The position numbers were made by a program, and so were the translations under genes. 64,000 nucleotides of DNA from Escherichia coli (lineage in GTDB: Bacteria > Pseudomonadota > Gammaproteobacteria > Enterobacterales > Enterobacteriaceae), in the NCBI RefSeq assembly GCF_030013205.1, contig NZ_CP122648.1, one strand, 5' to 3'. Numbering within the stretch: position 1 is the first letter of the stretch; every line of letters begins with the position of its first letter. The notes beneath the pieces are model-generated. The model made no database searches, was not told the origin of the DNA, and was given only the letters and a program-made list of their open reading frames with translations. Below, piece after piece: positions 1 through 57,900 of this stretch.

Positions 1-146
1 GATTCATTCTTACCGCAGGCGCGGGTTCGAGGTTAAGAAAGCTCTCAGTCTCGACTATCGGCACTGGATAATCTCTGTCAGGCTGCCTTATTCCGAACGC
101 CCACCACGTGCGTCCCGCACTTTCCAGCAACGGATCTGGAGGTAAC

Positions 147-1196
147 GTGCGGGTATTACTTAGACCTGTTCTGGTGCCTGAGCTTGGGCTGGTGGTCCTT
201 AAGCCGGGCCGTGAATCCATACAGATATTTCATAATCCTCGAGTGCTGGTGGAACCGGAACCAAAAAGCATGCGTAATCTGCCATCCGGAGTCGTTCCTG
301 CCGTTCGCCAGCCGCTGGCGGAAGACAAAACATTGCTGCCGTTTTTTAGTAACGAACTGGTGATTCGTGCTGCTGGCGGCGTTGGCGCATTGTCCGACTG
401 GCTATTACGTCATGTTACATCCTGCCAGTGGCCTAATGGCGATTACCATCACACTGAAACAGTCATTCACCGTTATGGTACCGGCGCAATGGTGTTGTGC
501 TGGCACTGCGACAACCAACTGCGTGACCAGACATCGGAATCACTGGAGCTGCTTGCTCAACAAAATCTGACAGCATGGGTGATTGACGTCATCCGTCACG
601 CAATAAGCGGTACGCAGGAGCGGGAATTATCTTTGGCTGAATTATCCTGGTGGGCGGTCTGCAATCAGGTGGTGGATGCACTACCTGAGGCTGTATCGCG
701 TCGTTCGCTGGGATTACCAGCGGAAAAAATCTGCTCGGTGTACCGCGAAAGCGACATCGTACCGGGAGAGCAGACCGCCACCAGCATATTGAAACAACGC
801 ACAAAAAATCTTGCACCGTTGCCTTACGCCCACCAGCAACAAAAATCACCACAGGAAAAGACGGTGGTAAGAATCACCGTTGATCCAGAGTCTCCGGAAT
901 CTTTCATGAAGCTGCCTAAACGTCGCCGCTGGGTTAAGGAGAAATACACACGTTGGGTTAAGACACAGCCGTGTGCTTGCTGCGGTATGCCAGCCGACGA
1001 TCCGCATCATCTGATTGGTCACGGGCAGGGCGGAATGGGAACAAAAGCACATGATCTCTTTGTGTTGCCTTTGTGCAGAAAGCATCACAACGAGCTGCAT
1101 ACGGATACAGTGGCATTTGAAGATAAGTATGGCTCCCAACTGGAGCTGATATTTCGTTTTATCGATCGCGCGCTGGCAATTGGCGTACTGGCGTAA
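147..1196 (+). CDS. ydfU: DUF968-family prophage protein with C-terminal Cys/His cluster (HNH-like)
   Basis: ORF track 108..1196. GTG at 147 is preceded by GGAGGT and gives the 349 aa length recalled for K-12 YdfU. C-terminus carries CACCG...HH...CRKHH. Confidence 0.65.
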   Translation: MRVLLRPVLVPELGLVVLKPGRESIQIFHNPRVLVEPEPKSMRNLPSGVVPAVRQPLAEDKTLLPFFSNELVIRAAGGVGALSDWLLRHVTSCQWPNGDYHHTETVIHRYGTGAMVLCWHCDNQLRDQTSESLELLAQQNLTAWVIDVIRHAISGTQERELSLAELSWWAVCNQVVDALPEAVSRRSLGLPAEKICSVYRESDIVPGEQTATSILKQRTKNLAPLPYAHQQQKSPQEKTVVRITVDPESPESFMKLPKRRRWVKEKYTRWVKTQPCACCGMPADDPHHLIGHGQGGMGTKAHDLFVLPLCRKHHNELHTDTVAFEDKYGSQLELIFRFIDRALAIGVLA

Positions 1197-1209
1197 GTGG
1201 AGAACGAGC

Positions 1210-1962
1210 ATGAACCTTGAAGCCTTACCAAAATATTACTCCCCAAAATCTCCAAAATTGAGCGATGACGCTCCAGCGACAGGCACCGGTTGTTTAACAA
1301 TTACGGATGTAATGGCAGCGCAGGGGATGGTGCAGTCGAAAGCACCACTTGGGTTGGCCTTATTTCTGGCAAAAGTTGGTGTTCAGGACCCTCAGTTTGC
1401 GATTGAAGGCCTGCTAAATTACGCGATGGCACTGGATAACCCGACATTGAACAAATTGAGTGAAGAAATCCGGTTACAGATTATTCCTTACCTCGTGAGT
1501 TTTGCCTTTGCTGATTACTCCAGGTCTGCGGCAAGTAAGGCTCGCTGTGAGCATTGTTCAGGTACGGGATTTTATAATGTATTGCGCGAAGTGGTGAAAC
1601 ACTACAGACGCGGGGAATCTGTAATCAAGGAAGAATGGGTGAAGGAACTATGTCAGCATTGCCATGGTAAGGGCGAAGCCAGCACAGCGTGCAGAGGGTG
1701 TAAGGGTAAAGGGATTGTTCTGGATGAAAAAAGAACCCGGTTTCATGGCGTACCGGTATATAAGATTTGTGGGCGTTGTAATGGAAACCGGTTTAGTCGT
1801 TTACCGACCACGCTGGCACGACGTCATGTCCAGAAGCTGGTACCAGACCTGACCGATTATCAGTGGTATAAGGGGTATGCGGACGTCATTGGTAAACTGG
1901 TAACAAAGTGCTGGCAGGAAGAAGCATACGCGGAAGCGCAATTGAGGAAGGTGACGAGATAA
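1210..1962 (+). CDS. quuQ: Late-gene antitermination protein Q
   Basis: ORF 1180..1962; internal ATG at 1210 gives 250 aa. Cys-rich zinc-finger-like motifs (CEHCSGTG, CQHCHGKG, CRGCKGKG, CGRCNG). Position is immediately upstream of the late promoter/terminator and lysis genes. Confidence 0.8.
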   Translation: MNLEALPKYYSPKSPKLSDDAPATGTGCLTITDVMAAQGMVQSKAPLGLALFLAKVGVQDPQFAIEGLLNYAMALDNPTLNKLSEEIRLQIIPYLVSFAFADYSRSAASKARCEHCSGTGFYNVLREVVKHYRRGESVIKEEWVKELCQHCHGKGEASTACRGCKGKGIVLDEKRTRFHGVPVYKICGRCNGNRFSRLPTTLARRHVQKLVPDLTDYQWYKGYADVIGKLVTKCWQEEAYAEAQLRKVTR

Positions 1963-1993
1963 ATGATTTTTGCTGAAGATGGCGACATGATGT

Positions 1994-2022
1994 TTGCATT
2001 TTTCAAAAAATATGGATAAAAT
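1994..2022 (+). promoter_or_regulatory. Candidate PR-prime-like late promoter (-35 TTGCAT 1994-1999, 17 bp spacer, -10 TAAAAT 2017-2022)
   Basis: Sigma70-like hexamers read directly from the sequence, directly downstream of the Q gene and about 45 bp upstream of a strong intrinsic terminator, as in lambdoid late-control regions. Confidence 0.4.
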
Positions 2023-2066
2023 TTTTTCAACGATGGGCTTTGTATACCCGACGTTAAGAAAAAGTA

Positions 2067-2098
2067 GAAAACCCGCTGATGAGCGGGTTTTGTGCTTT
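2067..2098 (+). terminator. Intrinsic terminator (tR-prime-like) downstream of Q
   Basis: Stem ACCCGC / GCGGGT with loop TGATGA, followed by a T-rich tract TTTTGTGCTTT. Confidence 0.6.
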
Positions 2099-2383
2099 AA
2101 ATGGGGCAATGGTAATGTTGAATCTCATCCCGGGACTCATGTCTGTTAACTTATTATTTAGCTGGTGACTTGGTTATTTGCCTGATGTTTAAAATGTTTT
2201 CTTCCAGTACAATGTCCCTAAACACAATGAGTCTGCTTATTATATTATTAGCAGAGCTATTACGGCCAAAGTACAGCATAAGCTTTTAAAGCCAATCAAC
2301 CAGTCATCAAGACAGACGGGGTTATTCATAAAAACTCTCCATGTGTGATCCGATGGGGCCTGAAATTAAAGCTTTAATATAGC

Positions 2384-2596
2384 TCATGAAAGGTAAACAT
2401 TGGCAGCTGAAGGGCCACGCAGACCATTTATCCGGCAAAATTCCACGCGTAATCCGGTGGTAATTTCTTCTGCATCGCGGAGATTGAGCGCTGAAACATG
2501 AAGCTGGACATCGATACGACCATCGGATGGGGTGATAAGACCCTTGCCGCTTTTGCCGTCAAAGGTTTTGACAATTCCTGTCATTTTACGGGACAA
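2384..2596 (-). CDS. cspF: Cold-shock-domain protein CspF
   Basis: 70 aa [16 protein letters not shown]... with the cold-shock-domain fold pattern; matches recalled K-12 CspF. Confidence 0.9.
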
Positions 2597-2896
2597 AAAA
2601 ATTCCTTAATACTGATAACTTGGCGCACTATACACACGTTCCTGAAGAAAGCTATAGTTTTTTGATGGGGTTGAAGATGGCTGGATGTCTAAAATAAACA
2701 TTGCTTCATATGTTCAACTATGCGTTAATGATTGCGTCGGTTTGAAGAACAGACGATATACGAAGTAGTTTACTAAAGCAGTTCTCATTTCAGGTGTTAT
2801 TCACTTATTCCTTCTTTGAGTCTCTCCAATTAAGTACGAAGTCGTTTCTGTTATGCAAACCATTTATGCCGAAAGGCTCAAGTTAAGGAATGTAGA

Positions 2897-3112
2897 ATGT
2901 CAAATAAAATGACTGGTTTAGTAAAATGGTTTAACGCTGATAAAGGTTTCGGCTTTATTTCTCCTGTTGATGGTAGTAAAGATGTGTTTGTGCATTTTTC
3001 TGCGATTCAGAATGATAATTATCGAACCTTATTTGAAGGTCAAAAGGTTACCTTCTCTATAGAGAGTGGTGCTAAAGGTCCTGCAGCAGCAAATGTCATC
3101 ATTACTGATTAA
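2897..3112 (+). CDS. cspB: Cold-shock protein CspB
   Basis: 71 aa [24 protein letters not shown]... with RNP1-like motif (KGFGFI); long upstream leader typical of cold-shock genes. Confidence 0.9.
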
Positions 3113-3393
3113 AATTCATCGCTCGTCTGTATACGATAACGAAGAAGGCTGATGCCTGAGTAGAGATACGGACAGAGTAGTGAATATTGGATCTCTTTAA
3201 TAAAAAGTAAGGAGGTCCAATACATGAAACAATGGCTAGCATATTTGGCAAAATCTTAATCAGGAAAAGTATGCTAACCATTGTGGTGAAGTGCAGGTTT
3301 GCTGAATGAATAGTTTTACAGCAGAAGCTAACTGCTGGCATGGCAAAACAAAGTGCGTAAGTGGATGACTCCCACAAAAAGCACCACAATCTC

Positions 3394-3417
3394 AAACCCG
3401 CTCAGGCGGGTTTTTTA
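3394..3417 (+). terminator. Intrinsic terminator downstream of cspB
   Basis: Stem CCCGC / GCGGG with loop TCAG, followed by TTTTTT. Confidence 0.6.
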
Positions 3418-3475
3418 TTATCTGCTTTAAATATATTATTAAAATATAAAAAATACTTGTTACTAATAAAATCAA

Positions 3476-3646
3476 TCAGGCTACAGCTTTAAGATTTGTC
3501 TGGAATACTTTGTTGCAATGAGGGCAGATCAAAAGGGCACCTTTTTGTACTCTTGAAAAACTGTGTTCTGACTCTTGGGTGCAGTTTGGGCAGGAACATT
3601 TAACGAGATAATTACGGCGTGATTTTGAGTTTTTACGTTCTGACAT
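3476..3646 (-). CDS. ynfU: Small zinc-ribbon protein (CxCPxC ... CPxC), YnfU-like
   Basis: ORF 3476..3697; internal ATG at 3644-3646 with an AGGAAAAG Shine-Dalgarno-like sequence gives 56 aa MSERKNSKSRRNYLVKCSCPNCTQ...CPHCNKVF. The gene name is from memory and uncertain. Confidence 0.45.
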   Translation of the reverse strand: MSERKNSKSRRNYLVKCSCPNCTQESEHSFSRVQKGALLICPHCNKVFQTNLKAVA

Positions 3647-3865
3647 AGGCTTTTCCTGTATAAATGGCCGTATACAGTACACTAAATATGAAAACATTTC
3701 TCGTATTATTATTTTATATATGACTTTCTTTCAAAATAATTACCCACATTTTTAATGTGTATGTTTTTTTAGCGCCGTTGAGAACAACGTGTGCTGTCAA
3801 AACTACCCCGTAGACTCCGATCTTTTCAAACATATTGCACCATCCGTGTACATCGGGGTGAGGAT

Positions 3866-4081
3866 ATGAAATCAATGGATAAGTTAACAACAGGTGTTGC
3901 CTATGGCACATCGGCGGGTAATGCTGGTTTCTGGGCATTGCAGTTACTCGATAAAGTAACTCCGTCACAGTGGGCTGCAATCGGTGTGCTGGGTAGCCTG
4001 GTTTTTGGCCTGCTGACGTATCTGACAAATCTTTATTTCAAGATTAAAGAAGACAGGCGTAAGGCTGCGAGAGGAGAGTAA
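3866..4081 (+). CDS. essQ: Phage holin, phage-21 S-type (pinholin-like), with dual start motif MKSMDK
   Basis: ATG at 3866 preceded by GGGGTGAGGA; 71 aa with a hydrophobic transmembrane core and charged C-terminus; directly upstream of the endolysin. Confidence 0.8.
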
Positions 4082-4085
4082 TCCA

Positions 4086-4393
4086 ATGACTCAAGACTAT
4101 GAACTGGTTGTGAAAGGAGTCCGTAATTTTGAGAATAAAGTTACGGTAACTGTAGCCTTACAGGACAAAGAACGCTTTGACGGTGAAATTTTTGACCTGG
4201 ATGTCGCCATGGACCGTGTTGAAGGAGCTGCGCTGGAGTTTTATGAGGCAGCAGCCAGAAGGAGCGTCCGGCAAGTCTTCCTGGAAGTAGCAGAAAAATT
4301 GTCAGAAAAAGTTGAGTCTTATCTGCAGCATCAGTACTCCTTTAAGATTGAAAATCCTGCCAATAAGCACGAGCGTCCTCATCATAAATATCT

Positions 4394-4397
<4 letters not shown>
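4086..4397 (+). CDS. ydfR: Prophage protein of unknown function (DUF1327-like) located between holin and endolysin
   Basis: 103 aa ORF; its stop overlaps the endolysin start (4394..4397), suggesting translational coupling. Confidence 0.7.
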
Positions 4398-5421
<1,024 letters not shown>

Positions 5422-5782
5422 GGTAATATTAAATCGGAACATTTACATCGCGGAATGTAAAATTTAAATAAAAAGGACTCTTCCATGAGCCAAAATTCCT
5501 GAAATCTTAAGGGTAAGATAAAAGGTCTTAATCAGAATGACACGTTTTATTAATAAATAAAGCTATTCTTTCATTGCTGTGTTTTTCTTTACAAAAGTAA
5601 TCCTTGCTATGGGTGGTTAATCATGCGTTAATGGTGTTCTGGTTTGTTACAAATTTATCTGAAGCAGTCATTGTTATAATTTTATTATTTGTACCTCTTG
5701 AGATTTCCTTGTTGGTTTTTCTCTCTGATATTTTTTTCGGACCATTCTGCCCAAGGGCTAATTTCTTCAAAAGGTAATAATT

Positions 5783-5995
5783 ATGTCTAACAAAATGACT
5801 GGTTTAGTGAAATGGTTTAACCCTGAAAAAGGTTTTGGTTTCATCACGCCGAAAGATGGCAGCAAAGATGTGTTTGTCCATTTCTCAGCAATTCAGAGCA
5901 ACGATTTCAAAACATTAACTGAGAATCAGGAAGTTGAATTTGGTATTGAGAACGGACCTAAAGGTCCTGCCGCTGTTCATGTAGTGGCGCTTTGA
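5783..5995 (+). CDS. cspI: Cold-shock protein CspI
   Basis: 70 aa [26 protein letters not shown]..., a paralogue of cspB. Confidence 0.9.
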
Positions 5996-6194
5996 GGTAG
6001 ACAATATTACAAACCATATTCACTTTAGATGCCCGTGTTGTCATGGTTCCCAGTATAGAACATCATCTTTTGATGTTTCTGACATGAATCCTTTCGGGGC
6101 AAAATGTATCTTTTGTAAATCAATGATGATTACATTTGATAATATTTCACAATACTTAAATGCCAGCCGTCTGTCGTTGGATTTGAAAAAGTGA
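5985..6194 (+). other. Zinc-ribbon-like open frame (CPCC...CIFC) with no in-frame ATG/GTG/TTG upstream of the first Cys pair; possible pseudogene or unconventional start
   Basis: Frame is open from 5985 to the TGA at 6192-6194; encodes ...RCPCCHGSQYRTSSFDVSDMNPFGAKCIFCKSMMITF...; resembles the zinc-ribbon ORF at 3476..3646; followed by a hairpin plus T-run at about 6199-6226. Confidence 0.3.
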
Positions 6195-6341
6195 AAATGA
6201 AGGCTCCTTCGGGAGCTTTTTTGCTTGGTGTCTATTCGATGGATACTCACATACTACGGTAACATCATGAAAAAAATCATAGTTTTTTTTAACTCTGAAC
6301 CAGCAGTGGTAGTGCCAGCGATGACTGGAGTTAACACCATC

Positions 6342-6497
6342 ATGCGTGAATATCCAAATGGCGAAAAAACACACCTTACTGTAATGGCCGCAGGGTTTCC
6401 ATCTCTGACCGGAGATCATAAAGTCATTTATGTAGCCGCGGATCGACATGTTACTTCAGAAGAAATTCTGGAAGCAGCAATAAGGCTCTTGAGTTGA
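6342..6497 (+). CDS. ynfN: Small prophage protein (51 aa), YnfN-like
   Basis: ORF track 6225..6497; internal ATG at 6342 gives 51 aa MREYPNGEKTHLTVMAAGFPSLTGDH.... The start choice and the name are uncertain. Confidence 0.4.
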   Translation: MREYPNGEKTHLTVMAAGFPSLTGDHKVIYVAADRHVTSEEILEAAIRLLS

Positions 6498-6668
6498 TTT
6501 GATGCTATTGCATTGATAATTCAGGAAAATTCTCTTTGTCTGTTTGTGTAAAATTTAGACTATCGTATGTTGATTATTGCGATGTTTCATCTTATCTTTT
6601 ACACGTTTGCACCATATAATCGACTTACTGTGTAACTGGAAAGTCATAACAGACTAAAAGAGGAAATG

Positions 6669-6842
6669 ATGAATATTGAAAACTTAAAAACAAAAGCAGA
6701 AGCAGATATTTCTGAATATATAACAAAAAAAATTATTGAACTTAAGAAAAAGACCGGGAAAGAAGTTACCAGTATTCAGTTTACCGCACGGGAAAAAATG
6801 ACGGGTCTTGAAAGCTATGATGTCAAGATTAATTTAATCTGA
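6669..6842 (+). CDS. gnsB: GnsA/GnsB-family small protein (57 aa)
   Basis: Below the 60 aa track cut-off, so read by hand: ATGATG at 6666-6671, stop TGA at 6840-6842; MNIENLKTKAEADISEYITKKIIELKKKTGKEVTSIQFTAREKMTGLESYDVKINLI; AGGAAA Shine-Dalgarno-like sequence upstream. Confidence 0.65.
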   Translation: MNIENLKTKAEADISEYITKKIIELKKKTGKEVTSIQFTAREKMTGLESYDVKINLI

Positions 6843-6993
6843 TGTATTCAATAATAAAATTTATCCATAAACCTCGTTTTTACGGGGTTTTGTTATATTT
6901 GAATGGTTCCGAATATCTAAATCACAATTGTTGATGGTTTTTATTAAACCAATGCAGTCCGGCTCAGGAGTGAGAGAAGCCGGACGTTATGGT

Positions 6994-7419
6994 TTAGCGT
7001 GGTAAGATCTGTGTAGTTTTCTGGATGCTTTCAGTAAATAGTAATGAATTATCAAAGGTATAGTAATATCTTTTTTGTTCGTGGATATTTGTAACCCACC
7101 GAAAAACTCCTGCTTTAGCAAGGTTTCTTCTGTATTCCTGAAATGTGATCTCTCTGGATTTCAGCTTATTAGAGGTCGTTTCTATAAGATGCCTATCCTT
7201 TGAAAATTTGACAGACACAATGTTTTTTAGGCCCTTTAATAACACTGTATTATCATTTTTTAATACAATATGAACATTCTCTGTGGCTAAATAGTAAATG
7301 TAATGTGAGACATTGTGACGTTTTAGCTCAGAATAAAACCATTGATAGTTTAAATCGTTTCGAACTTTATCAAATATTTGTTTAAAAATGACTACCTGAT
7401 CCATAGATAAACCTTCCAT
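6994..7419 (-). CDS. ydfO: DUF1398-family prophage protein
   Basis: 141 aa ORF (alternative start at 7404 gives 136 aa); co-directional with and immediately downstream of the ribbon-helix-helix gene. Confidence 0.7.
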
Positions 7420-7461
7420 GTGATATGAGGGGGCGTAGTCTGCACGATTATCTAAATTGCT

Positions 7462-7695
7462 TCAATCTGGTCTGACCTGTTTTCTGAGCAATTCAGTAAT
7501 GTCACTCTTTTCTTTGTTTGCTTCAGAAGAAACTCTTTTTTCTGAGCACAGTCTCCGGCGGCAGGCTTCAATGACCCAGGCTGAGAAATTCCCGGACCCT
7601 TTTTGCTCAAGAGCGATGTTAATTTGTTCAATCATTTGGTTAGGAAAGCGGATGTTGCGGGTTGTTGTTCTGCGGGTTCTGTTCTTCGTTGACAT
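7462..7695 (-). CDS. ynfO: Small ribbon-helix-helix-like DNA-binding protein
   Basis: 77 aa; segment RNIRFPNQMIEQINIALEQKG...NFSAWVIEACRRRL fits a beta-strand plus two helices as in Arc/CopG-type proteins. Confidence 0.6.
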   Translation of the reverse strand: MSTKNRTRRTTTRNIRFPNQMIEQINIALEQKGSGNFSAWVIEACRRRLCSEKRVSSEANKEKSDITELLRKQVRPD

Positions 7696-7799
7696 GAGGT
7701 TGCCCCGTATTCAGTGTCGCTGATTTGTATTGTCTGAAGTTGTTTTTACGTTAAGTTGATGCAGATCAATTAATACGATACCTGCGTCATAATTGATTA

Positions 7800-8083
7800 T
7801 TTGACGTGGTTTGATGGCCTCCACGCACGTTGTGATATGTAGATGATAATCATTATCGCTTTACGGGTCCTTTCCGGTGATCCGACAGGTTACGGGGCGG
7901 CGACCTCGCGGGTTTTCGCTATTTATGAAAATTTTCCGGTTTAAGGTGTTTCCGTTCTTCTTCGTCGTAACTTAATGTTTTTATTTAAAATACCCCCTGA
8001 AAAGAAAGGAAACGACAGGTGCTGAAAGCGAGCTTTTTGGCCTCTGTCGTTTCCTTTCTCTGTTTTTGTCCGTGGAATGAGCA
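7800..8083 (+). other. Lambda-type cos site (cosQ/cosN/cosB); cosN 12-nt cohesive-end sequence GGGCGGCGACCT at 7895..7906
   Basis: The sequence around 7881-8083 matches the recalled junction of the lambda right and left ends (..TCCGACAGGTTACG | GGGCGGCGACCTCGCGGGTTTTCGCTATTTATGAAAATTTTCCGGTTTAAGG..), followed by the Nu1-like gene. Confidence 0.75.
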
Positions 8084-8629
8084 ATGGAAGTCAACAAAAA
8101 GCAGCTGGCTGACATTTTCGGTGCGAGTATCCGTACCATTCAGAACTGGCAGGAACAGGGAATGCCCGTTCTGCGAGGCGGTGGCAAGGGTAATGAGGTG
8201 CTTTATGACTCTGCCGCCGTTATAAGATGGTATGCCGAAAGGGATGCTGAAATTGAGAACGAAAAGCTGCGCCGGGAAGTTGAAGAACTGCGGCAGGCCA
8301 GCGAGACAGATCTCCAGCCAGGGACTATTGAGTACGAACGCCATCGACTTACGCGTGCGCAGGCCGACGCACAGGAGCTGAAAAATGCCAGAGACTCCGC
8401 TGAAGTGGTGGAAACCGCATTCTGTACTTTCGTGCTGTCGCGGATCGCAGGTGAAATTGCCAGTATTCTCGACGGGATCCCCCTGTCGGTGCAGCGGCGT
8501 TTTCCGGAACTGGAAAACCGACATGTTGATTTCCTGAAACGGGATATCATCAAAGCCATGAACAAAGCAGCCGCGCTGGATGAACTGATACCGGGGTTGC
8601 TGAGTGAATATATCGAACAGTCAGGTTAA
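8084..8629 (+). CDS. nohA: Terminase small subunit (lambda Nu1 homologue)
   Basis: 181 aa MEVNKKQLADIFGASIRTIQNWQEQGMPV..., essentially lambda Nu1 with a winged-HTH N-terminus. Confidence 0.85.
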   Translation: MEVNKKQLADIFGASIRTIQNWQEQGMPVLRGGGKGNEVLYDSAAVIRWYAERDAEIENEKLRREVEELRQASETDLQPGTIEYERHRLTRAQADAQELKNARDSAEVVETAFCTFVLSRIAGEIASILDGIPLSVQRRFPELENRHVDFLKRDIIKAMNKAAALDELIPGLLSEYIEQSG

Positions 8630-10088
8630 CAGGCTGCGGCATTTTGTCCGCGCCGGGCTTCGCTCACTGTTCAGGCCGGAGCCACAGACCGCCGTTGAAT
8701 GGGCGGATGCTAATTACTATCTCCCGAAAGAATCCGCATACCAGGAAGGGCGCTGGGAAACACTGCCCTTTCAGCGGGCCATCATGAATGCGATGGGCAG
8801 CGACTACATCCGTGAGGTGAATGTGGTGAAGTCTGCCCGTGTTGGTTATTCCAAAATGCTGCTGGGTGTTTATGCCTACTTCATAGAGCATAAGCAGCGC
8901 AACACCCTTATCTGGTTGCCGACGGATGGTGATGCCGAGAACTTTATGAAAACTCACGTTGAGCCGACCATCCGTGATATTCCTTCGCTGCTTGCGCTGG
9001 CCCCGTGGTATGGCAAAAAGCACCGGGATAACACGCTCACCATGAAGCGTTTCACCAATGGTCGTGGCTTCTGGTGCCTGGGCGGTAAAGCGGCAAAAAA
9101 CTACCGTGAAAAGTCGGTGGATGTGGCGGGTTATGATGAACTTGCTGCTTTTGATGATGATATTGAACAGGAAGGCTCTCCGACGTTCCTGGGTGACAAG
9201 CGTATTGAAGGCTCGGTCTGGCCAAAGTCCATCCGTGGCTCCACGCCCAAAGTGAGAGGCACCTGCCAGATTGAGCGTGCAGCCAGTGAATCCCCGCATT
9301 TTATGCGTTTTCATGTTGCCTGCCCGCACTGCGGGGAGGAGCAGTACCTTAAATTTGGCGATAAAGAGACGCCGTTTGGCCTCAAATGGACGCCGGATGA
9401 TCCCTCCAGCGTGTTTTATCTCTGCGAGCATAATGCCTGCGTCATCCGCCAGCAGGAGCTGGACTTTACTGATGCCCGTTATATCTGCGAAAAGACCGGG
9501 ATCTGGACCCGTGATGGCATTCTCTGGTTTTCGTCATCCGGTGAAGAGATTGAGCCGCCGGACAGTGTGACCTTTCACATCTGGACGGCGTACAGCCCGT
9601 TCACCACCTGGGTGCAGATTGTCAAAGACTGGATGAAAACGAAAGGGGATACGGGAAAACGTAAAACCTTCGTGAACACCACGCTCGGTGAGACGTGGGA
9701 AGCGAAAATCGGCGAACGTCCGGATGCTGAAGTGATGGCAGAGCGGAAAGAGCATTATTCAGCGCCCGTTCCTGACCGTGTGGCTTACCTGACCGCCGGT
9801 ATCGACTCCCAGCTGGACCGCTACGAAATGCGCGTATGGGGATGGGGGCCGGGTGAGGAAAGCTGGCTGATTGACCGGCAGATTATTATGGGCCGCCACG
9901 ACGATGAACAGACGCTGCTGCGTGTGGATGAGGCCATCAATAAAACCTATACCCGCCGGAATGGTGCAGAAATGTCGATATCCCGTATCTGCTGGGATAC
10001 TGGCGGGATTGACCCGACCATTGTGTATGAACGCTCGAAAAAGCATGGGCTGTTCCGGGTGATCCCCATTAAAGGGGCATCCGTCTAA
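8604..10088 (+). pseudogene. Terminase large subunit (lambda gpA homologue), N-terminal 494 codons only; truncated by an internal prophage deletion
   Basis: GTG start overlapping nohA; protein matches the recalled lambda gpA N-terminus up to ...[10 protein letters not shown], then a stop. Lambda continues YGKPVASMPRKRNKNG, which is absent here. Confidence 0.8.
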
Positions 10089-10149
10089 GGGACGCTTCCT
10101 GAACAACATTAACGCGGTCAGTAAAACAGACTTTGCTGATAAGCGTGGT

Positions 10150-11904
10150 ATGCGTTATGTGCGGGTTAACGCTCCTGCAGGTGCAACATCTGGAAAATAT
10201 TACCCTGTTGTTGTTATGCGTTCTGCTGGCTCAGTAAGCGAACTGGCATCAAGGGTCATTATCACCACGGCACCGCGAACCGCAGGCGATCCGATGAATA
10301 ACTGCGAGTTTAACGGATTTGTTATGCCTGGTGGCTGGACTGACAGGGGGCGTTATGCTTATGGAATGTTCTGGCAATATCAAAACAATGAACGAGCCAT
10401 CCACTCAATAATGATGAGTAATAAGGGCGATGATTTGCGCTCTGTGTTCTATGTTGATGGCGCTGCTTTCCCTGTTTTTGCGTTTATCGAAGATGGCCTG
10501 TCAATATCCGCACCTGGTGCTGATCTCGTTGTTAATGATACGACCTATAAGTTTGGGGCAACAAATCCAGCGACTGAATGTATCGCGGCGGACGTTATCC
10601 TTGATTTTAAGAGTGGGCGTGGTTTTTATGAGTCTCATTCGTTAATCGTTAACGATAACTTGTCGTGCAAAAAACTTTTTGCCACAGACGAAATTGTAGC
10701 GCGTGGTGGTAATCAGATTCGAATGATAGGTGGGGAGTATGGTGCATTATGGCGTAATGATGGCGCTAAAACTTACCTGCTGCTTACCAATCAAGGTGAT
10801 GTTTATGGTGGCTGGAATACATTAAGACCGTTTGCTATTGATAACGCAACCGGCGAACTGGTTATTGGAACCAAACTGTCCGCAAGTCTGAACGGTAATG
10901 CATTAACAGCAACAAAGCTGCAAACGCCAAGACTGGTTTCTGGTGTTGAGTTTGATGGTTCCAAAGATATTACTTTAACCGCCGCGCATGTGGCTGCTTT
11001 TGCCAGAAGGGCAACGGATACATATGCCGATGCGGATGGTGGCGTTCCCTGGAATGCCGAATCAGGCGCTTACAATGTCACCCGCTCTGGCAACAGCTAT
11101 ATTCTGGTTAACTTCTATACCGGAGTCGGAAGTTGCCGGACATTGCAGATGAAGGCGCATTACAGAAATGGAGGTCTGTTCTACCGTTCCTCAAGAGATG
11201 GCTATGGTTTTGAGGAAGACTGGGCAGAAGTTTATACCTCGAAAAATCTTCCACCAGAAAGCTACCCAGTCGGTGCACCAATCCCGTGGCCATCAGATAC
11301 CGTTCCGTCTGGTTATGCCCTGATGCAGGGGCAGACTTTTGACAAATCTGCTTACCCGAAACTTGCAGCCGCTTATCCGTCAGGCGTGATCCCTGATATG
11401 CGTGGCTGGACGATTAAGGGCAAACCTGCCAGTGGTCGGGCCGTATTGTCTCAGGAACAGGACGGCATTAAATCGCACACCCACAGCGCCAGCGCATCCA
11501 GTACGGATTTGGGGACGAAAACCACATCGTCGTTTGATTACGGCACTAAATCCACGAATAACACCGGGGCGCATACCCATAGTGTTAGCGGTACGGCTGC
11601 TTCAGCCGGTGCACATACCCATTCGATAACATTTGTTTCAGGTGGCACCAAAGGTGCTCCGGGAAGTGGATCACCTGATTATTCTAAATACAGTGTTAAC
11701 ACTTCTTCTGCAGGCGCTCATACGCACTCTGTATCGGGTACTGCTGCAAGCGCAGGTGCACACGCACATACTGTAGGTATTGGTGCGCATACGCACTCGG
11801 TTGCGATTGGTTCACATGGACACACCATCACCGTTAACGCTGCTGGTAACGCGGAAAACACCGTCAAAAACATCGCATTTAACTATATTGTGAGGCTTGC
11901 ATAA
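10150..11904 (+). CDS. stfQ: Side tail fibre protein fragment (Stf-like C-terminal region)
   Basis: 584 aa ORF with repeated GAHTHS motifs near the C-terminus, typical of lambda Stf / T-even long-tail-fibre tips; followed by a Tfa gene; upstream end abuts the terminase deletion junction. Confidence 0.6.
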
Positions 11905-12479
11905 TGGCATTCAGAATGAGTGAACAACCACGGACCATAAAAATTTATAATCTGCTGGCCGGAACTAATGAATTTATTGGTGAAGGTGATGCATATATTC
12001 CGCCTCATACAGGTCTGCCAGCAAACAGTACCGATATTGCACCGCCAGATATTCCGGCTGGCTTCGTGGCTGTTTTCAACAGTGATGAGTCATCGTGGCA
12101 TCTCGTTGAAGATCATCGGGGTAAAACGGTTTATGACGTGGCTTCCGGCGACGCGTTATTTATTTCTGAACTCGGTCCGTTACCGGAAAATGTTACCTGG
12201 TTATCGCCGGAAGGGGAGTTTCAGAAGTGGAACGGCACAGCCTGGGTGAAGGATACGGAAGCAGAAAAACTGTTCCGGATCCGGGAGGCGGAAGAAACAA
12301 AAAACAACCTGATGCAGGTAGCCAGTGAGCATATTGCGCCGCTTCAGGATGCTGCAGATCTGGAAATCGCAACGGAGGAAGAAATCTCGTTGCTGGAAGC
12401 ATGGAAAAAGTATCGGGTATTGCTGAACCGTGTTGATACGTCAACTGCACAGGATATTGAATGGCCAGCACTGCCGTAG
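11904..12479 (+). CDS. tfaQ: Tail fibre assembly protein (Tfa family)
   Basis: 191 aa; start overlaps the stf stop; conserved Tfa C-terminal region. Confidence 0.8.
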
Positions 12480-12576
12480 GGTAAAACATATAAATTCTAT
12501 AATTAGATGTATCTTTCCATTTACGGCAAGGAAGGGGGCTTGGAAGACGTAAAGCATCTCACACCGAGATTATTTT

Positions 12577-13167
12577 TTATATGTCAGGTGTCTGAAGTTT
12601 TGCTTTGGCTCTTAAAATGGTTTGCCGCGAGGTTTTGAATTCCCGGGCAATGGCACTTATACTTACACCTGACTTAATTCGTTCGAATACCGCCTGTTTC
12701 TGTTCTTCATTTAACACAGGTGGTCGACCAAAACGTTTCCCTGCGCCGCGGGCACTTACTATCCCGGAATGAGTGCGTTCAAGTAAAAGGTCTCGTTCAA
12801 ATTCAGCGACTGCTGAAATTACTTGCATCATCATTTTTCCTGTTGGACTGGTCAGGTCAATGCCCCCCAATGCTAAGCAATGCACTCTGATACCTGTTTC
12901 GGTCAGTTGTTCCACTGTTTTCCTGATATCCATTGCATTACAACCAAGGCGATCCAGTTTTGTCACAATCAATTGATCACCACATTTCAGGCGAGCAAGC
13001 AACCGGTTAAAACCAGGACGCTCACTGGTTGCTGCTGAGCCGCTAATGTGTTCTTCGATTATTTGCTGAGGTTTGATTTTAAAACCTGCACTTTCGATTT
13101 CCCGGCGTTGATTTTCGGTGGTCTGATCCAGCGTTGATATCCGACAGTAAGCAAAAATTCGAGACAT
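12577..13167 (-). CDS. pinQ: Serine recombinase / DNA invertase (Pin family)
   Basis: 196 aa; N-terminal resolvase catalytic domain (YCRISTLDQ with catalytic Ser) and C-terminal HTH; convergent with tfa. Confidence 0.8.
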
Positions 13168-13483
13168 AGTGAGACTCTATACGAAATTGGTGTTCATATC
13201 ATAATGCATCTCAGAAAATAATTATGATTATTTTTGTGCATATTTGTATGTACACGTTCGAAAATAAACGAATGCGTATGCAACCCCGTAATTTTGGTGA
13301 GACCCAAAATCGATTTTGTGAAAAATGGCTTTAACTCGGTTTGTTTTTCGAGTTCCGGGCGGACTCAAGGAAGAAGAATAGTGTTGCGTGTTATTTTAAC
13401 CAGATTTCAAGTTGTTTGGTCGTGGAAAAGTGGAGCAAAATGTTGTTAAAGTGGAAAAATGATAAAAAAGTAAGTTTATTATA

Positions 13484-13717
13484 TTACATTTTACCATTTA
13501 AATTTTGGTTGTCTTTAAGAACTGATATCGCTGTTTGTAATAATTCTTTGTTATCCAGCCATGATTTTTTCTTTATGTTTCCTTCAATGTAATCAAGCAA
13601 TGTTCTGGTATTGATAGGTCTTCCCTGTTTTGCTACTTCCACTACAGCATCCCCTAGGATAATTCTTACTTCAGGAAGCTGCGCAGGGAACCACTTTAGG
13701 GTGTCTTTTGATTTCAT
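13484..13717 (-). CDS. ydfK: Small prophage protein YdfK-like (77 aa)
   Basis: ORF 13484..13750; internal ATG at 13715-13717 with an AAGGAA Shine-Dalgarno-like sequence gives 77 aa. Confidence 0.55.
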   Translation of the reverse strand: MKSKDTLKWFPAQLPEVRIILGDAVVEVAKQGRPINTRTLLDYIEGNIKKKSWLDNKELLQTAISVLKDNQNLNGKM

Positions 13718-14502
13718 GAAGATATTCCTTAAAATATTATTGATTTTCATTGCGATATTGTATGTCTGATTCAGGATATGTTGACTTATACATCGGTTTT
13801 GTCTGGGTTATTGGATATGCCAATCCCTAATTTTATTAGGGCATGACTAAAAATGCTGAATATGATAAGGAGAGATGTGATTATCAGTATGCTGTTCATA
13901 TAGCCTCGAATTAGTAATGTGTTATATATGATATAGTTGACAATTTTTATCTTGGGTGTTCTTAAAGTTCGTAGATAAACATTGTCGTTTCAGGTATACA
14001 GGAATGCTAACAGGTGGCAGCAAAAATCAGGCGGTTTATGGCGCAAGCTGAAGCGGCAACTGCAAACTATCTTATGCAGAGACTCTACACGGATTGGGTT
14101 TAAAAGTATACATAGATAACAGTTTTTATCTGAAAAAGAAAAATATCAAGGTGATATAGCCTATATGCCTTTGATGCGGAGGAATGAATGTGATGGGAGT
14201 GATGTATCTGAATAGTTGAAAAACCGCAGACACGCCTTATGCAAGAACGTGCTGCGGTTGGCTGGTAAATTTTTCGATAGTGTGAGTATTGAATGATTTC
14301 CAGCCGTTCTTGATTTTACGCATAAATCCATGAAAAAACTACTTATCTGTTGGGGAGTTTTTTTGGGGCATATATGGGACAGAAATAGGCCCCAGATAGA
14401 CACTGAGATCGAACTTAGGATGCTTTTTAAAAAATGCAACTATCTGAAAAAACCTAGAAAACGCCAAGGAAACCACAGGATGGGAAAAAACACCTGTGAA
14501 TT

Positions 14503-19409: not shown

Positions 19410-21455
19410 ATGACAACAATGAATCCTTTCCTTGTGCAAAGCACACTGCCGTATCTGGCTCCCCATTTTGATCAAATTGCCAATCATCACTATCGCCCGG
19501 CATTCGATGAGGGAATGCAGCAAAAGCGGGCAGAAATTGCTGCCATCGCGCTTAACCCGCAAACACCTGATTTCAACAATACTATTCTGGCACTGGAACA
19601 AAGCGGAGAATTACTTACCCGCGTTACCAGCGTCTTTTTTGCGATGACTGCGGCGCATACTAATGATGAATTACAGCGTCTTGATGAACAGTTTTCCGCT
19701 GAACTGGCGGAACTGGCTAATGATATCTATCTGAACGGTGAATTATTCGCGCGGGTAGATGCTGTCTGGCAACGCCGTGAATCCCTGGGACTTGATAGTG
19801 AATCCATCCGCCTGGTGGAGGTCATTCATCAACGTTTTGTCCTTGCCGGAGCCAAACTTGCACAAGCTGATAAAGCAAAATTAAAAGTCCTGAATACAGA
19901 AGCTGCGACCCTGACCAGCCAGTTTAACCAGCGGTTACTGGCAGCAAATAAATCCGGCGGTCTGGTTGTGAACGATTTCGCGCAGCTGGCAGGAATGAGT
20001 GAGCAAGAGATTGCGCTGGCGGCAGAGGCGGCTCGCGAGAAAGGTCTGGATAACAAATGGCTGATTCCGTTGCTGAATACCACCCAGCAACCAGCGCTTG
20101 CTGAACTGCGCGATCGCGCGACGCGTGAAAAACTGTTCACTGCGGGCTGGACGCGAGCGGAAAAAAATGATGCCAATGATACCCGCGCTATCATTCAACG
20201 TCTGGTGGAGATCCGCGCGCAGCAGGCGAAACTGCTTGGTTTCCCTCATTATGCCGCATGGAAAATCGCCGATCAGATGGCAAAAACGCCAGAAGCAGCA
20301 CTCAACTTTATGCGGGAAATTGTTCCAGCGGCGCGTCAACGTGCGAGCGATGAATTAGCCTCCATACAGGCGGTTATCGATAAGCAGCAGGGCGGGTTTA
20401 GCGCGCAGCCGTGGGACTGGGCATTTTATGCCGAGCAGGTAAGACGTGAGAAATTCGATCTCGATGAATCGCAGCTCAAGCCATATTTTGAATTAAACAC
20501 GGTGTTGAATGAAGGTGTATTCTGGACCGCGAATCAGCTCTTCGGTATTAAGTTTGTCGAACGTTTTGATATTCCTGTCTACCATCCTGACGTTCGTGTA
20601 TGGGAAATTTTTGATCATAATGGCGTGGGGCTGGCGTTATTTTACGGTGATTTCTTCGCCCGTGATTCAAAAAGCGGCGGTGCATGGATGGGCAATTTTG
20701 TTGAGCAATCAACGCTTAATGAAACGCATCCGGTAATTTATAACGTCTGCAATTATCAGAAACCCGCTGCCGGTGAGCCTGCGTTGTTACTCTGGGATGA
20801 TGTCATAACCTTATTCCATGAATTTGGTCATACGTTGCACGGCCTCTTTGCCCGCCAGCGTTATGCCACACTTTCCGGCACCAACACGCCGCGTGATTTT
20901 GTCGAATTTCCGTCGCAAATCAACGAACACTGGGCAACGCATCCGCAGGTATTCGCTCGCTACGCCCGGCATTATCAGAGCGGGGCAGCAATGCCTGACG
21001 AACTGCAACAGAAAATGCGTAATGCCAGCCTGTTCAATAAAGGGTATGAGATGAGCGAACTGCTTAGCGCCGCACTTCTCGATATGCGCTGGCATTGCCT
21101 GGAAGAAAACGAAGCAATGCAGGATGTCGATGATTTCGAATTGCGGGCGCTGGTGGCAGAAAATATGGATCTTCCCGCTATACCGCCACGCTATCGCAGC
21201 AGTTATTTCGCCCATATTTTTGGTGGCGGATATGCCGCAGGTTATTACGCTTATCTGTGGACGCAAATGTTGGCCGATGATGGTTACCAGTGGTTTGTTG
21301 AGCAGGGCGGATTAACGCGTGAAAATGGGCGGCGTTTTCGCGAGGCGATTCTTTCCAGAGGTAACAGCGAAGATCTGGAACGCCTGTATCGACAATGGCG
21401 CGGTAAGGCACCTCAGATTATGACGATGCTGCAACATCGTGGCTTGAACGTATAA
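19410..21455 (+). CDS. dcp: Dipeptidyl carboxypeptidase II (M3-family zinc metallopeptidase)
   Basis: 681 aa from the ATG at 19410 (AGGAGAAG upstream); HEFGH zinc-binding motif present. Confidence 0.9.
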   Translation: MTTMNPFLVQSTLPYLAPHFDQIANHHYRPAFDEGMQQKRAEIAAIALNPQTPDFNNTILALEQSGELLTRVTSVFFAMTAAHTNDELQRLDEQFSAELAELANDIYLNGELFARVDAVWQRRESLGLDSESIRLVEVIHQRFVLAGAKLAQADKAKLKVLNTEAATLTSQFNQRLLAANKSGGLVVNDFAQLAGMSEQEIALAAEAAREKGLDNKWLIPLLNTTQQPALAELRDRATREKLFTAGWTRAEKNDANDTRAIIQRLVEIRAQQAKLLGFPHYAAWKIADQMAKTPEAALNFMREIVPAARQRASDELASIQAVIDKQQGGFSAQPWDWAFYAEQVRREKFDLDESQLKPYFELNTVLNEGVFWTANQLFGIKFVERFDIPVYHPDVRVWEIFDHNGVGLALFYGDFFARDSKSGGAWMGNFVEQSTLNETHPVIYNVCNYQKPAAGEPALLLWDDVITLFHEFGHTLHGLFARQRYATLSGTNTPRDFVEFPSQINEHWATHPQVFARYARHYQSGAAMPDELQQKMRNASLFNKGYEMSELLSAALLDMRWHCLEENEAMQDVDDFELRALVAENMDLPAIPPRYRSSYFAHIFGGGYAAGYYAYLWTQMLADDGYQWFVEQGGLTRENGRRFREAILSRGNSEDLERLYRQWRGKAPQIMTMLQHRGLNV

Positions 21456-21819
21456 ACACCACCAATGGCTGGCCTGGATTTATCGCCAGACCAGCCTCGT
21501 TATAGCAGTAATTGCAGCAGCTGGGTGAGGGCAAACTTCACCGCTAATGCGAATGCCGTTTCGCAGTCGCCAGCAAAATTACTTTTTTTGTATACCCTTC
21601 CGTTATAATAATTTTCAAATTTATAAATCTGATTGTTCTGAAATATGTTTAAGACTCTTTAATCTTCTTCTTACTTTAGTGAGTTAAATTCTCTTAATAT
21701 TTGACAGCTAGTTGCCTGATTTTAAATGCCTTATAACAATTGGCAGTATTCTTATTTGTCAATTATAAAAATAGCAACCAGACTTAATAAGTCAAACCAA
21801 ACGCAATTAAGGAGTCAGT

Positions 21820-22212
21820 ATGAAATTTCAGGCCATTGTATTAGCAAGTTTTCTTGTCATGCCTTATGCGTTGGCAGATGACCAGGGCGGATTAAAACAG
21901 GATGCAGCGCCACCGCCGCCTCATGCAATAGAAGATGGCTATCGCGGAACCGATGATGCAAAAAAAATGACCGTTGATTTCGCAAAAACCATGCATGATG
22001 GCGCTTCGGTTTCACTACGCGGTAATTTGATTTCTCACAAAGGAGAGGACCGTTACGTTTTTCGCGATAAGAGCGGTGAAATTAATGTTGTTATTCCTGC
22101 GGCAGTCTTTGATGGACGAGAAGTTCAGCCGGACCAGATGATCAACATTAGCGGTAGTCTGGATAAGAAAAGCGCTCCGGCCGTCGTTCGGGTCACTCAT
22201 TTGCAGAAATAA
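21820..22212 (+). CDS. ydeI: Periplasmic OB-fold (BOF/YgiW-family) stress protein
   Basis: 130 aa with signal peptide [19 protein letters not shown]. Confidence 0.8.
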
Positions 22213-23381: not shown

Positions 23382-23417
23382 GCTCCGTTTAACATTCATT
23401 GAGAAAACTGATGCTAC

Positions 23418-23524
23418 TGTGTCAACGATCCGTTATCAGTGCAGGAAAATGCCTGTTAGCGTAAAAGCAAAACACAAATCTATCCATGCAAGCATTCACC
23501 GCCGGTTTACTGGCGGTTTTTTTT
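23418..23524 (+). ncRNA. mgrR: Candidate small RNA (MgrR-like), ending at an intrinsic terminator
   Basis: PhoP-box-like direct repeat AGTTTA-N5-CGTTTA at 23375-23391, then an A/T-rich stretch, then a stem (ACCGCCGG / CTGGCGGT) followed by eight T at 23498-23524; no plausible ORF. Position between dgcZ and mgtS matches the recalled mgrR location. Start coordinate is approximate. Confidence 0.4.
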
Positions 23525-23599
23525 CGCCGTCATAAAAATCAGGCCCCTTGTACACAGTTGTAACAAGGGGCCGGTTAGGTGAGGGATTATCTCCGTTCA

Positions 23600-23695
23600 T
23601 TAGTCATCCCATTTGTGGCTGAAATACGCGGCCAGAAAACCAGAAAATAAAATTATTCCCAGTACGGCCATAAAAACATTCATATTACCCAGCAT
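23600..23695 (-). CDS. mgtS: Small membrane protein MgtS (31 aa)
   Basis: Not in the ORF track (below 60 aa); reverse strand reads ATG CTG GGT AAT ATG ... = MLGNMNVFMAVLGIILFSGFLAAYFSHKWDD, with a GGAGG Shine-Dalgarno sequence 7 nt upstream and a downstream hairpin. Confidence 0.8.
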   Translation of the reverse strand: MLGNMNVFMAVLGIILFSGFLAAYFSHKWDD

Positions 23696-33035: not shown

Positions 33036-33470
33036 TTACGGCAGGACTTTCTTAAGCAAATGCTCAAGTGTTGCCACTTCGTCCGCGGTCAGGTTTTTTG
33101 TTAATTCTTGATGCAGGTCCTGGCCAACTAATTGATGGCATTGTTCACATATTGCCGCGCCGCTGGTGGTAAGTTTTACCAGTACGCCGCGCTTGTCATT
33201 CGGGTTCGGCAACCTTTCCACCCAGCCTTTACAGACCAGGCGATCCAGCATACGGGTCAGCGCCCCCAGGTCGACCGATAACACTCTTTTCAGTTCAACC
33301 GGAGTAATACACGCCGCGCAGCGGATAGAGCAGAGCACCTTAAACTGTGCCGCGGTAATATCCAGCGGAGACAGATACTCGTTAAGCAGGCGATCTTTCT
33401 TCTGATTAACCATATGGATTAAGCGACCCAATGGAATAATTTCATTGAACAGATCGCTGGTACTTTTCAC
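33036..33470 (-). CDS. marR: MarR-family repressor MarR
   Basis: 144 aa winged-helix protein upstream of marA in the same operon. Confidence 0.9.
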
Positions 33471-54461: not shown

Positions 54462-54984
54462 TTTCATTGACAGCCACATCATGATGACCGTGGCTGTTAG
54501 TTTTTGAGTATTCTTATTTCCCTTCTTTTAGAGCTGGCTTGTTAAATGCCAGCTTGCAGATTCATCGTTCCATCGCCAGTAATATATTCAAGGGGAAATT
54601 GCTATTTTTCTTAAAACATTAAGCATAACCCTTATTTTATAGCGAATATTCCTAAAGGCATAAATGAATGAAAAAGAGTTTTAATAGAGTTCTTTTTTAG
54701 CAATTAATGCTATTCTTTGTTAAATATGATGATGGTAATATTCTTATTCACAGAAACAGTTTTCTTATTAAGCAACAATAACTCATGGTTCATTTTTAAA
54801 TAAAATAAGAACTATGCAATTTTTAATCTATCAATTCGAAAGTATTAGCAAATTAGCCAAATTGACACCTTCCCACCTCCAACCAACACTCAATACAGAC
54901 CTCTGACAATTTAATAAGTTTCATTTTTAATGTCTGACGACTCATCTCTTTCGTGGCTGTATTGTTTGTATATGGAGCGTTTAT

Positions 54985-57900
54985 ATGAATAGAATCTATC
55001 GCGTGATATGGAATTGCACCCTACAGGTATTTCAGGCCTGCTCGGAATTGACTCGCAGGGTAGGTAAAACATCAACGGTTAATTTGCGTAAATCCTCTGG
55101 ACTGACAACGAAATTCAGTAGATTGACGCTGGGTGTTTTGCTGGCACTAAGCGGTTCAGCGTCTGGTGCGAGTCTGGAAGTTGATAATGATCAGATTACC
55201 AATATTGATACTGATGTTGCTTATGATGCCTACCTGGTTGGCTGGTATGGCACTGGAGTGCTTAATATTTGGGCTGGCGGTAATGCCTCCTTAACCACTA
55301 TTACTACCAGCGTCATTGGTGGTAATGAGAACTCGAAGGGCACCGTTAATGTTTTGGGTGGCACCTGGCGATTGTATGAACGGGCGAAGCTTTCCGCTAT
55401 ATCTATATCGGTGATGCTGGCGATGGTGAACTTAATGTCTCGAGTGAAGGCAAAGTAGATTCGGGAATTATCACTGCGGGGATGAAAGAAACAGGCACAG
55501 GCAACATTACTGTTAAGGATAAGAACTCCGTTATCACTAATCTCGGAACTAATCTTGGTTATGACGGCCACGGCGAAATGAATATCAGTAATGAGGGGCT
55601 TGTTGTCAGCAACGGAGGAAGCTCACTCGGTTATGGAGAAACCGGCGTCGGGAAGGTTAGCATCACCACGGGGGGGATGTGGGAGGTCAATAAGAATGTC
55701 TATACCACTATTGGTGTTGCGGGCGTCGGAAACCTCAATATCAGCGATGGCGGTAAGTTCGTATCGCAAAATATTACTTTTTTGGGCGATAAAGCAAGCG
55801 GTATCGGCACACTGAACCTGATGGATGCGACATCATTGTTCGATACTGTAGGTATCAATGTCGGTAATTTTGGTAGCGGCATCGTAAATGTCAGTAATGG
55901 TGCCACTCTTAATTCAACGGGCTATGGATTTATCGGAGGAAATGCCTCCGGTAAGGGGATAGTTAATATTTCAACGGATAGTCTCTGGAATTTAAAAACG
56001 TCATCTACTAACGCCCAATTGCTACAGGTCGGTGTATTAGGCGCGGGTGAACTGAATATTACCACCGGAGGTATAGTTAAAGCACGTGATACACAAATAG
56101 CTCTCAATGACAAAAGTAAGGGCGACGTGCGGGTGGATGGGCAGAACTCTCTTCTTGAAACATTCAATATGAACGTAGGGACGACTGGCACAGGTACGTT
56201 AACCCTGACGAATAACGGTACGCTGAATGTCGAAGGTGGAGAAGTTTACTTAGGTGTTTTTGCGCTTGCTGTAGGAACGCTAAACATTGGTGCTGCTCAC
56301 GGTGAGGCGGCGGCAGATGCCGGATTTATCACCAATGCGACGAAAGTGGAGTTTGGTCTTGGCGAAGGCGTTTTTGTCTTTAATCATACCAATAACAGTG
56401 ATGCCGGCTACCAGGTCGATATGCTGATTACGGGTGACGATAAAGACGGAAAAGTGATGCATGATGCAGGCCATACGGTGTTCAATGCAGGGAATACTTA
56501 TAGCGGTAAAACGTTGGTCAATGGCGGCCTCCTGACCATTGCGTCACATACGGCAGATGGGGTAACTGGCATGGGTTCGAGTGAAGTAACCATTGCAAGC
56601 CCCGGTACGCTCGACATTCTCGCATCAACGAACAGTGCGGGAGATTACACGCTGACCAATGCGCTCAAAGGCGATGGCTTGATGCGAGTGCAGCTGTCAT
56701 CCTCCGACAAAATGTTTGGCTTTACCCATGCAGCAGGGACTGAATTCGCCGGTGTTGCCCAACTGAAAGACAGTACCTTCGCACTGGAACGCGACAACAC
56801 CGCTGCGCTTACTCACGCGATGCTGCAGTCTGACAGTGAAAATACCACATCGGTAAAAGTGGGAGAGCAATCCATTGGTGGACTAGCCATGAATGGCGGT
56901 ACGCTCACTTTCGATACGGATATACCTGCTGCGACGCTTGCGGAGGGATATATCAGCGTCGATACACTGGTTGTCGGCGCGGGTGACTACACCTGGAAAG
57001 GCCGTAACTATCAGGTAAACGGGACGGGCGACGTGCTTATCGACGTGCCTAAACCGTGGAATGATCCCATGGCGAATAACCCTCTGACGACGCTCAATTT
57101 GCTGGAACACGATGATAGCCATGTCGGCGTTCAACTGGTGAAGGCGCAAACGGTTATTGGGTCGGGTGGCTCATTAACGTTACGTGATTTACAGGGCGAC
57201 GAGGTGGAAGCGGACAAAACGTTACACATTGCACAAAACGGAATAGTGGTCGCCGAGGGTGATTATGGATTCCGCCTCACGACCGCACCAGGTGATGGTT
57301 TGTACGTTAACTATGGGCTGAAAGCGCTGAACATCCATGGTGGGCAAAAGCTGACGTTAGCCGAACATGGCGGAGCCTATGGCGCAACGGCCGATATGTC
57401 GGCAAAAATCGGTGGTGAAGGGGATCTGGCAATCAATACGGTGCGACAGGTTTCGCTTTCTAACGGTCAGAACGACTATCAGGGGGCAACCTACGTTCAG
57501 ATGGGGACATTACGTACCGATGCGGATGGCGCGCTGGGCAATACTCGGGAACTGAACATCAGCAACGCGGCCATCGTCGATCTTAATGGATCGGCCCAGA
57601 CGGTAGAGACATTCACCGGGCTGATGGGTTCGACTGTTTTGTTTAAAGAGGGGTCGCTGACGGTGAATAAAGGTGGGATCAGTCAGGGCGAACTGACAGG
57701 TGGCGGAAACCTGAATGTTACAGGGGGAACACTGGCTATCGAGGGGCTTAATGCACGCTACAATGCGTTAACCAGCATTAGCCCAAATGCCGAAGTCAGC
57801 CTCGATAATACGCAGGGGTTAGGCAGAGGAAATATTGCCAATGACGGTCTGTTAACGCTAAAAAATGTGACCGGCGAACTGCGTAATAGCATAAGCGGGA

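Follow-up and report, generated by a model that had tools for sequence, protein, structure and literature searches.

The 364-bp interval between dcp and ydeI in the Escherichia coli DNA analyzed here (a stretch of 64 kb, called the window throughout) almost certainly holds a dead remnant of ydeJ, left behind by a single ancient deletion of 475 bp. The interval (21456-21819) runs from the dcp stop codon, which ends at 21455, to the ydeI ATG at 21820, the same span as that measured in the earlier note. On its left lies dcp (19410-21455, plus strand), which encodes the peptidyl-dipeptidase Dcp, is intact in both the list of open reading frames and the RefSeq annotation of strain K_EC180, and is convergent with ydeJ. 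On its right lies ydeI (21820-22212, plus strand), an intact frame in the same list for a YdeI family OB-fold stress protein whose product is that of K-12, with the same RefSeq entry (WP_000671737.1) in K_EC180 and BW25113. The gene order that the earlier note gave for K-12, with a CinA-domain gene of about 170 aa between these two, is indeed that of BW25113, where dcp (+), ydeJ (-), and ydeI (+) follow one another and ydeJ encodes a 172-aa protein matching the Pfam CinA domain (PF02464) at E 9e-48. The window keeps the order and strands of BW25113, with ydeJ convergent with dcp, and these recur in O157:H7, O111:H8, FMU073332, and MFDS1019527.

The window belongs to the porcine O139:H1/ETEC4079 lineage of E. 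coli. K_EC180 is collinear with it over all 64 kb at 99.97% identity, the porcine strain ETEC4079 is 100% identical to it over 24 kb, and O139:H1 strains are nearly so. O139:H1 ST1 has been typed as phylogroup D (PMC11052496).

A truncated ydeJ reading frame

The remnant comprises 79 bases on the minus strand (21500-21578) and is recognized by alignment, by a profile match, by BLASTP, and as a RefSeq pseudogene in K_EC180. It consists of the last base of codon 147 (21578), codons 148-172 (21503-21577), and the stop codon (21500-21502). A minus-strand frame ending there in TAA, with its final 25 codons (FAGDCETAFALAVKFALTQLLQLLL) resembling a CinA/PncC-type C-terminus, was what had first been noted from the letters; the frame is exactly as described, and the likeness has turned out to be homology to the C-terminus of YdeJ, on the combined evidence of nucleotide identity, BLASTP, and a match to the NCBIfam model NF002972. 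At the DNA level, 74 of the 79 bases (94%) are identical to the 3' end of K-12 ydeJ. BLASTP aligns the remnant peptide with residues 147-162 of K-12 YdeJ at E 1e-7, and the 26-residue peptide matches positions 148-172 of the 175 in NF002972 (E 4.5e-6, 26.5 bits). This model is the YdeJ equivalog, with a whole-protein cutoff of 201 bits, and full-length K-12 YdeJ scores 329 bits against it; the score of the peptide, far under the cutoff, is to be read as homology of a fragment and not as membership as a gene. Taken together, the resemblance to YdeJ is homology, well beyond what chance would give.

K-12 YdeJ spans positions 3-155 of the CinA domain, and just its last 25 residues survive in the window; the remnant peptide has no match in Pfam, and the complete domain (about 155 positions) is absent. 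No in-frame ATG, GTG, or TTG lies between the upstream stop codon and the remnant, the list of open reading frames has no minus-strand frame of at least 25 aa ending at 21500, and a search of 21400-21900 against Rfam gave no family match, even at E 1. Because there is neither an in-frame start codon nor an Rfam match, the remnant is dead DNA, a non-coding relic. A small open reading frame or sRNA within it was rejected on the same two grounds, with Rfam matches sought at E up to 1.

The remnant is already known, in that the standard annotation pipeline flags it: in K_EC180, RefSeq lists the same sequence as an 81-base (21500-21580) partial pseudogene, "incomplete; missing N-terminus," and a "missing N-terminus" partial pseudogene is annotated in every deletion locus that we examined. 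It is, in this sense, an ordinary small pseudogene. We found no paper in the literature that describes this deletion.

The deletion and its junction

In a three-way alignment with the dcp-ydeI region of K-12, the interval has one gap, of 475 bp, with collinear sequence on either side, a result that supports the earlier note's suggestion that most of the gene had been deleted. The missing K-12 segment (3279-3753 of the K-12 locus, L002) covers 35 bp ahead of the start codon, the first 146 codons, of which the start codon is GTG by the K-12 sequence and its translation, and two of the three bases of codon 147. Because all of these are gone, a YdeJ protein should not be possible, and the strain would make none. 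The junction (21578-21579; GCAAAA joined to TTACTTTTTTTG) can be placed with an ambiguity of 1 bp, a shared T. Its string is identical in the five deletion loci that we sampled, three of the window type and two of the B2 type described below, and the four intact loci have exactly the 475 bp.

One element of the earlier description has to be revised. What lies upstream of the remnant had been taken for unrelated sequence, yet it is not foreign: it is the native divergent ydeJ-ydeI spacer (21579-21819, 241 bp), 90.5% identical to positions 3754-3993 of the K-12 locus. In K-12 terms, what is retained starts 36 bp before the GTG of ydeJ.

The deletion extends from the interior of codon 147 to 35 bp 5' of the GTG start and fuses the remnant, 25 codons and a stop, directly to the ydeJ-ydeI spacer; we propose that it was illegitimate (non-homologous). 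A repeat- or IS-mediated event was considered and rejected: the shared T is all that the endpoints have in common, and there is no repeat or IS scar, with the K-12-like loci and the MFDS1019527 haplotype taken into account. The deletion probably arose once and spread by descent, possibly aided by recombination.

A probable single event on one haplotype

Comparison of dcp at nine loci gave divergences of 0.9-2.4% among the deletion-bearing loci and of 2.3-3.5% between these and the intact loci (K-12, O157:H7, O111:H8, and FMU073332). A single old event on one branch agrees with both these divergences and the identity of the junction, and we infer that this is how the deletion arose. Between the sampled deletion and intact loci there are 29 fixed differences, 10 of which are crowded into the 63 bp immediately to the right of the junction (21579-21641). 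Deletion-associated mutagenesis or relaxed constraint might be invoked for this patch; both were rejected, as MFDS1019527, which has an intact ydeJ, carries the same upstream haplotype (its counterpart of the patch lies at 3504-3570 of its locus, L012). Since the same haplotype sits upstream of an intact ydeJ, the patch predates the deletion, which fell on a promoter-region haplotype that was already there.

Expression signals around the remnant

The retained spacer contains the ydeI upstream region and whatever is left of the ydeJ promoter. Scans for promoters and terminators gave matches not above the shuffled expectation; on the minus strand, two promoter-like matches (21795-21768 and 21746-21719) were found against 1.4 expected by chance. 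For K-12, binding of RcdA to the ydeI-ydeJ spacer and an effect of RcdA on ydeI expression have been reported (PMC3535384). A search for the RcdA box (TTGTNNACA) returned sites with one mismatch only. As the 241 bp upstream of ydeI are kept and the YdeI protein is unchanged, ydeI is probably still expressed and working.

Between the convergent stop codons of dcp and ydeJ, RNA folding predicts a GC-rich hairpin (21467-21496; -18.2 kcal/mol, z -3.8), and none of 200 shuffled sequences folds as well. The alignment places the same hairpin in K-12. It lacks a T-run and is not called by the consensus terminator scan; it could function as a transcript end.

Alternative explanations

The direction of the change, loss and not gain, follows in our reading from the truncated reading frame and the reported presence of ydeJ in Salmonella. 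When genome contigs were scanned for outgroups with a degenerate DNA pattern built on the YdeJ motif ITGYGGPEGGEDGT, there were 0 matches. The converse scheme would make the short form ancestral, with ydeJ inserted in K-12-like lineages and the C-terminal likeness a coincidence or the edge of the insertion. We consider this extremely improbable: the remnant is in frame, its stop codon is that of full-length ydeJ and lies equally far from dcp, and its DNA is 94% identical to the final 79 bases of the gene. Moreover, a CinA domain cut at residue 147, with no Pfam match, cannot be an ancestral gene, neither boundary in the intact alleles shows a target-sequence duplication, and Salmonella has ydeJ (PMC7387798). 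Even less credible, to the point of being negligible, is an artefact of assembly or sequencing in this single genome, given that about 1,800 complete genomes, each assembled independently, contain the junction unbroken, among them PacBio plus Illumina assemblies such as that of K_EC180.

A different objection accepts the deletion and holds that what was left has been kept for a function, as a small peptide, as the 3' end of a transcript from the orphan ydeJ promoter, which would be antisense to nothing as far as the dcp hairpin, or as a structure at the end of the dcp transcript. Its appeal lies in the 25 codons still being open in all sampled loci, in the minus-strand promoter-like hexamers that survive in the spacer, and in the stable hairpin directly beyond the 3' end of the remnant, before the dcp stop. 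However, with no in-frame ATG, GTG, or TTG upstream, the sole internal GTG would yield 13 residues; no Rfam family is detectable in the region even at the loosest cutoff used; the promoter-like matches are close to their chance number (2 versus 1.4); and the hairpin is outside the remnant. The 5 of 79 bases that differ from K-12 exceed the 2.8% of dcp, a small sample in which no extra constraint is visible. Such retention for function is thus very unlikely, and a dead relic of a single 475-bp deletion remains the preferred reading.

Distribution in E. coli and a nested second deletion

Of the 5,426 complete E. coli genomes in which prevalence was assessed, 3,618 contain the 475-bp segment and 1,796-1,800 have a one-piece match to a 96-bp probe spanning the junction; the intact and junction classes together account for 5,418 of the 5,426. 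The window type, with the ydeJ junction and an intact ydeI, is represented by 759 genomes. The remaining junction-bearing genomes, about 1,040 by subtraction, match the window only up to 21621 and include O25b:H4-ST131, ATCC 25922, and APEC O1:K1:H7, which we take to be B2 strains. They have a second deletion of 504 bp, corresponding to window 21622-22125 (seen at L003 3318-3409 and L006 3088-3179 in two of the extracted loci), through which the rest of the spacer and codons 1-102 of ydeI are lost, so that what is annotated there is a fragment of ydeI; the endpoints of this deletion share an imperfect AA(A/G)TT. Because it is nested on the same first junction, this second deletion arose on a haplotype already without ydeJ. 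In the B2-type genomes, the 504-bp deletion would be the later of the two.

It is tempting to see here a divergent gene pair being eroded step by step in a way that marks lineages: ydeJ would have gone first, in the lineage to which the phylogroup D O139:H1 strains belong, and ydeI second, on the same haplotype, in B2 strains, with the loss of ydeJ possibly selected. As a whole, we regard this broader scheme as unlikely.

Other features of the window

Beyond the interval, the window has several features that deserve record. Positions 1-13900 hold a Qin-like defective prophage with ydfU/ydfT, essD, rrrQ, nohA, and pinQ, a terminase/tail-fibre fusion pseudogene at 8605-11905, two cspA-type thermoregulator RNAs (2736-3128 and 5638-6022), and a match to the IS009 RNA (12247-12445); ydfJ is truncated at 14504. 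Just after dgcZ, the Hfq-binding sRNA STnc560 has a full-length Rfam match (280 bits, 23393-23606, plus strand), which is antisense to mgtT and the end of mgtS (23496-23695, minus strand). Between eamA and marB, the segment 26148-32325 is annotated with a GntR regulator, PTS IIB, IIC, and IIA components, a carbohydrate porin, and a 6-phospho-beta-glucosidase, a block that is presumably missing from K-12. At least 80% of window 14000-38000 is covered in just 2,514 of the 5,426 genomes, so some part of this stretch is variable in E. coli.

Two genes differ in sequence between the window and K_EC180. The marR gene is intact in the window (33036-33470, minus strand, a 144-aa frame), whereas its K_EC180 counterpart is 8 bases shorter (gaps of 7 bases and 1 base at 33076-33094) and is annotated as frameshifted. 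An autotransporter of the ECSE_1600 family (54977-59777) is annotated as frameshifted in K_EC180, from which the window differs by three single-base homopolymer indels (55670, 55955, and 57860). Its longest open reading frame in the window is 55482-59777 (1,431 aa), and a disruption at the 5' end of the gene may persist.

Significance and comparison with known systems

By itself, the loss of ydeJ carries little weight, as it amounts to an ordinary annotated pseudogene. The junction has a modest use as a clean presence/absence marker, dividing complete E. coli genomes approximately 2:1, with the nested ydeI deletion marking the B2-type subset. It is also relevant to any work on YdeJ/RdsA or YdeI in K-12: ydeJ is missing from about 33% of complete E. 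coli genomes, and both genes are missing from about 19%.

The product name attached to these sequences calls for comment. Both ydeJ (L002 3200-3718) and the remnant carry the RefSeq/NCBIfam (NF002972) name "2-oxo-tetronate isomerase." In the papers that we found, this activity (EC 5.3.1.35) is attached to YgbM/b2739. The name is a misfit with the CinA domain of YdeJ and looks like a misnaming; we regard it as doubtful, and its use on ydeJ and its remnants merits a curator's check. As to enzymatic function, even intact E. coli YdeJ reportedly has no NMN deamidase activity and carries the changes Y58F and N60D in catalytic residues (PMC3855486). That question is irrelevant to the 25-codon remnant.

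The named orthologue of the lost gene is Salmonella RdsA, which lowers negative supercoiling (PMC7387798). In that organism, negative supercoiling represses the ydeJ promoter and increases when the gene is deleted, which is the origin of the name (PMC7387798). This work was done in Salmonella and not in E. coli, for which we found no supercoiling data on YdeJ. Should YdeJ act in E. coli like RdsA, its natural absence from a third of the species, the major extraintestinal pathogenic clones among them, would put these lineages at a different supercoiling set-point, and the loss of ydeJ could then have been selected and not neutral; we consider this reading unlikely.

Among E. coli loci, the counterpart of the remnant is K-12 ydeJ itself (b1537; UniProt P31131), a single-domain CinA/PncC-like gene in the same position and orientation, whose residues 148-172 and stop codon correspond to the remnant and the rest of which is lacking in the window. 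The RefSeq pseudogenes IGX36_RS24605 of K_EC180 and BE939_RS27130 of Ecol_AZ159 coincide with the remnant (as 21500-21580) in both coordinates and call. The B2-type double remnant of ST131, ATCC 25922, APEC O1:K1:H7, and Ecol_AZ159 shares the first junction of the window base for base and differs from it in the extra 504-bp deletion that truncates ydeI, a gene that the window keeps intact; the window is the intermediate state between the intact locus and this double deletion.
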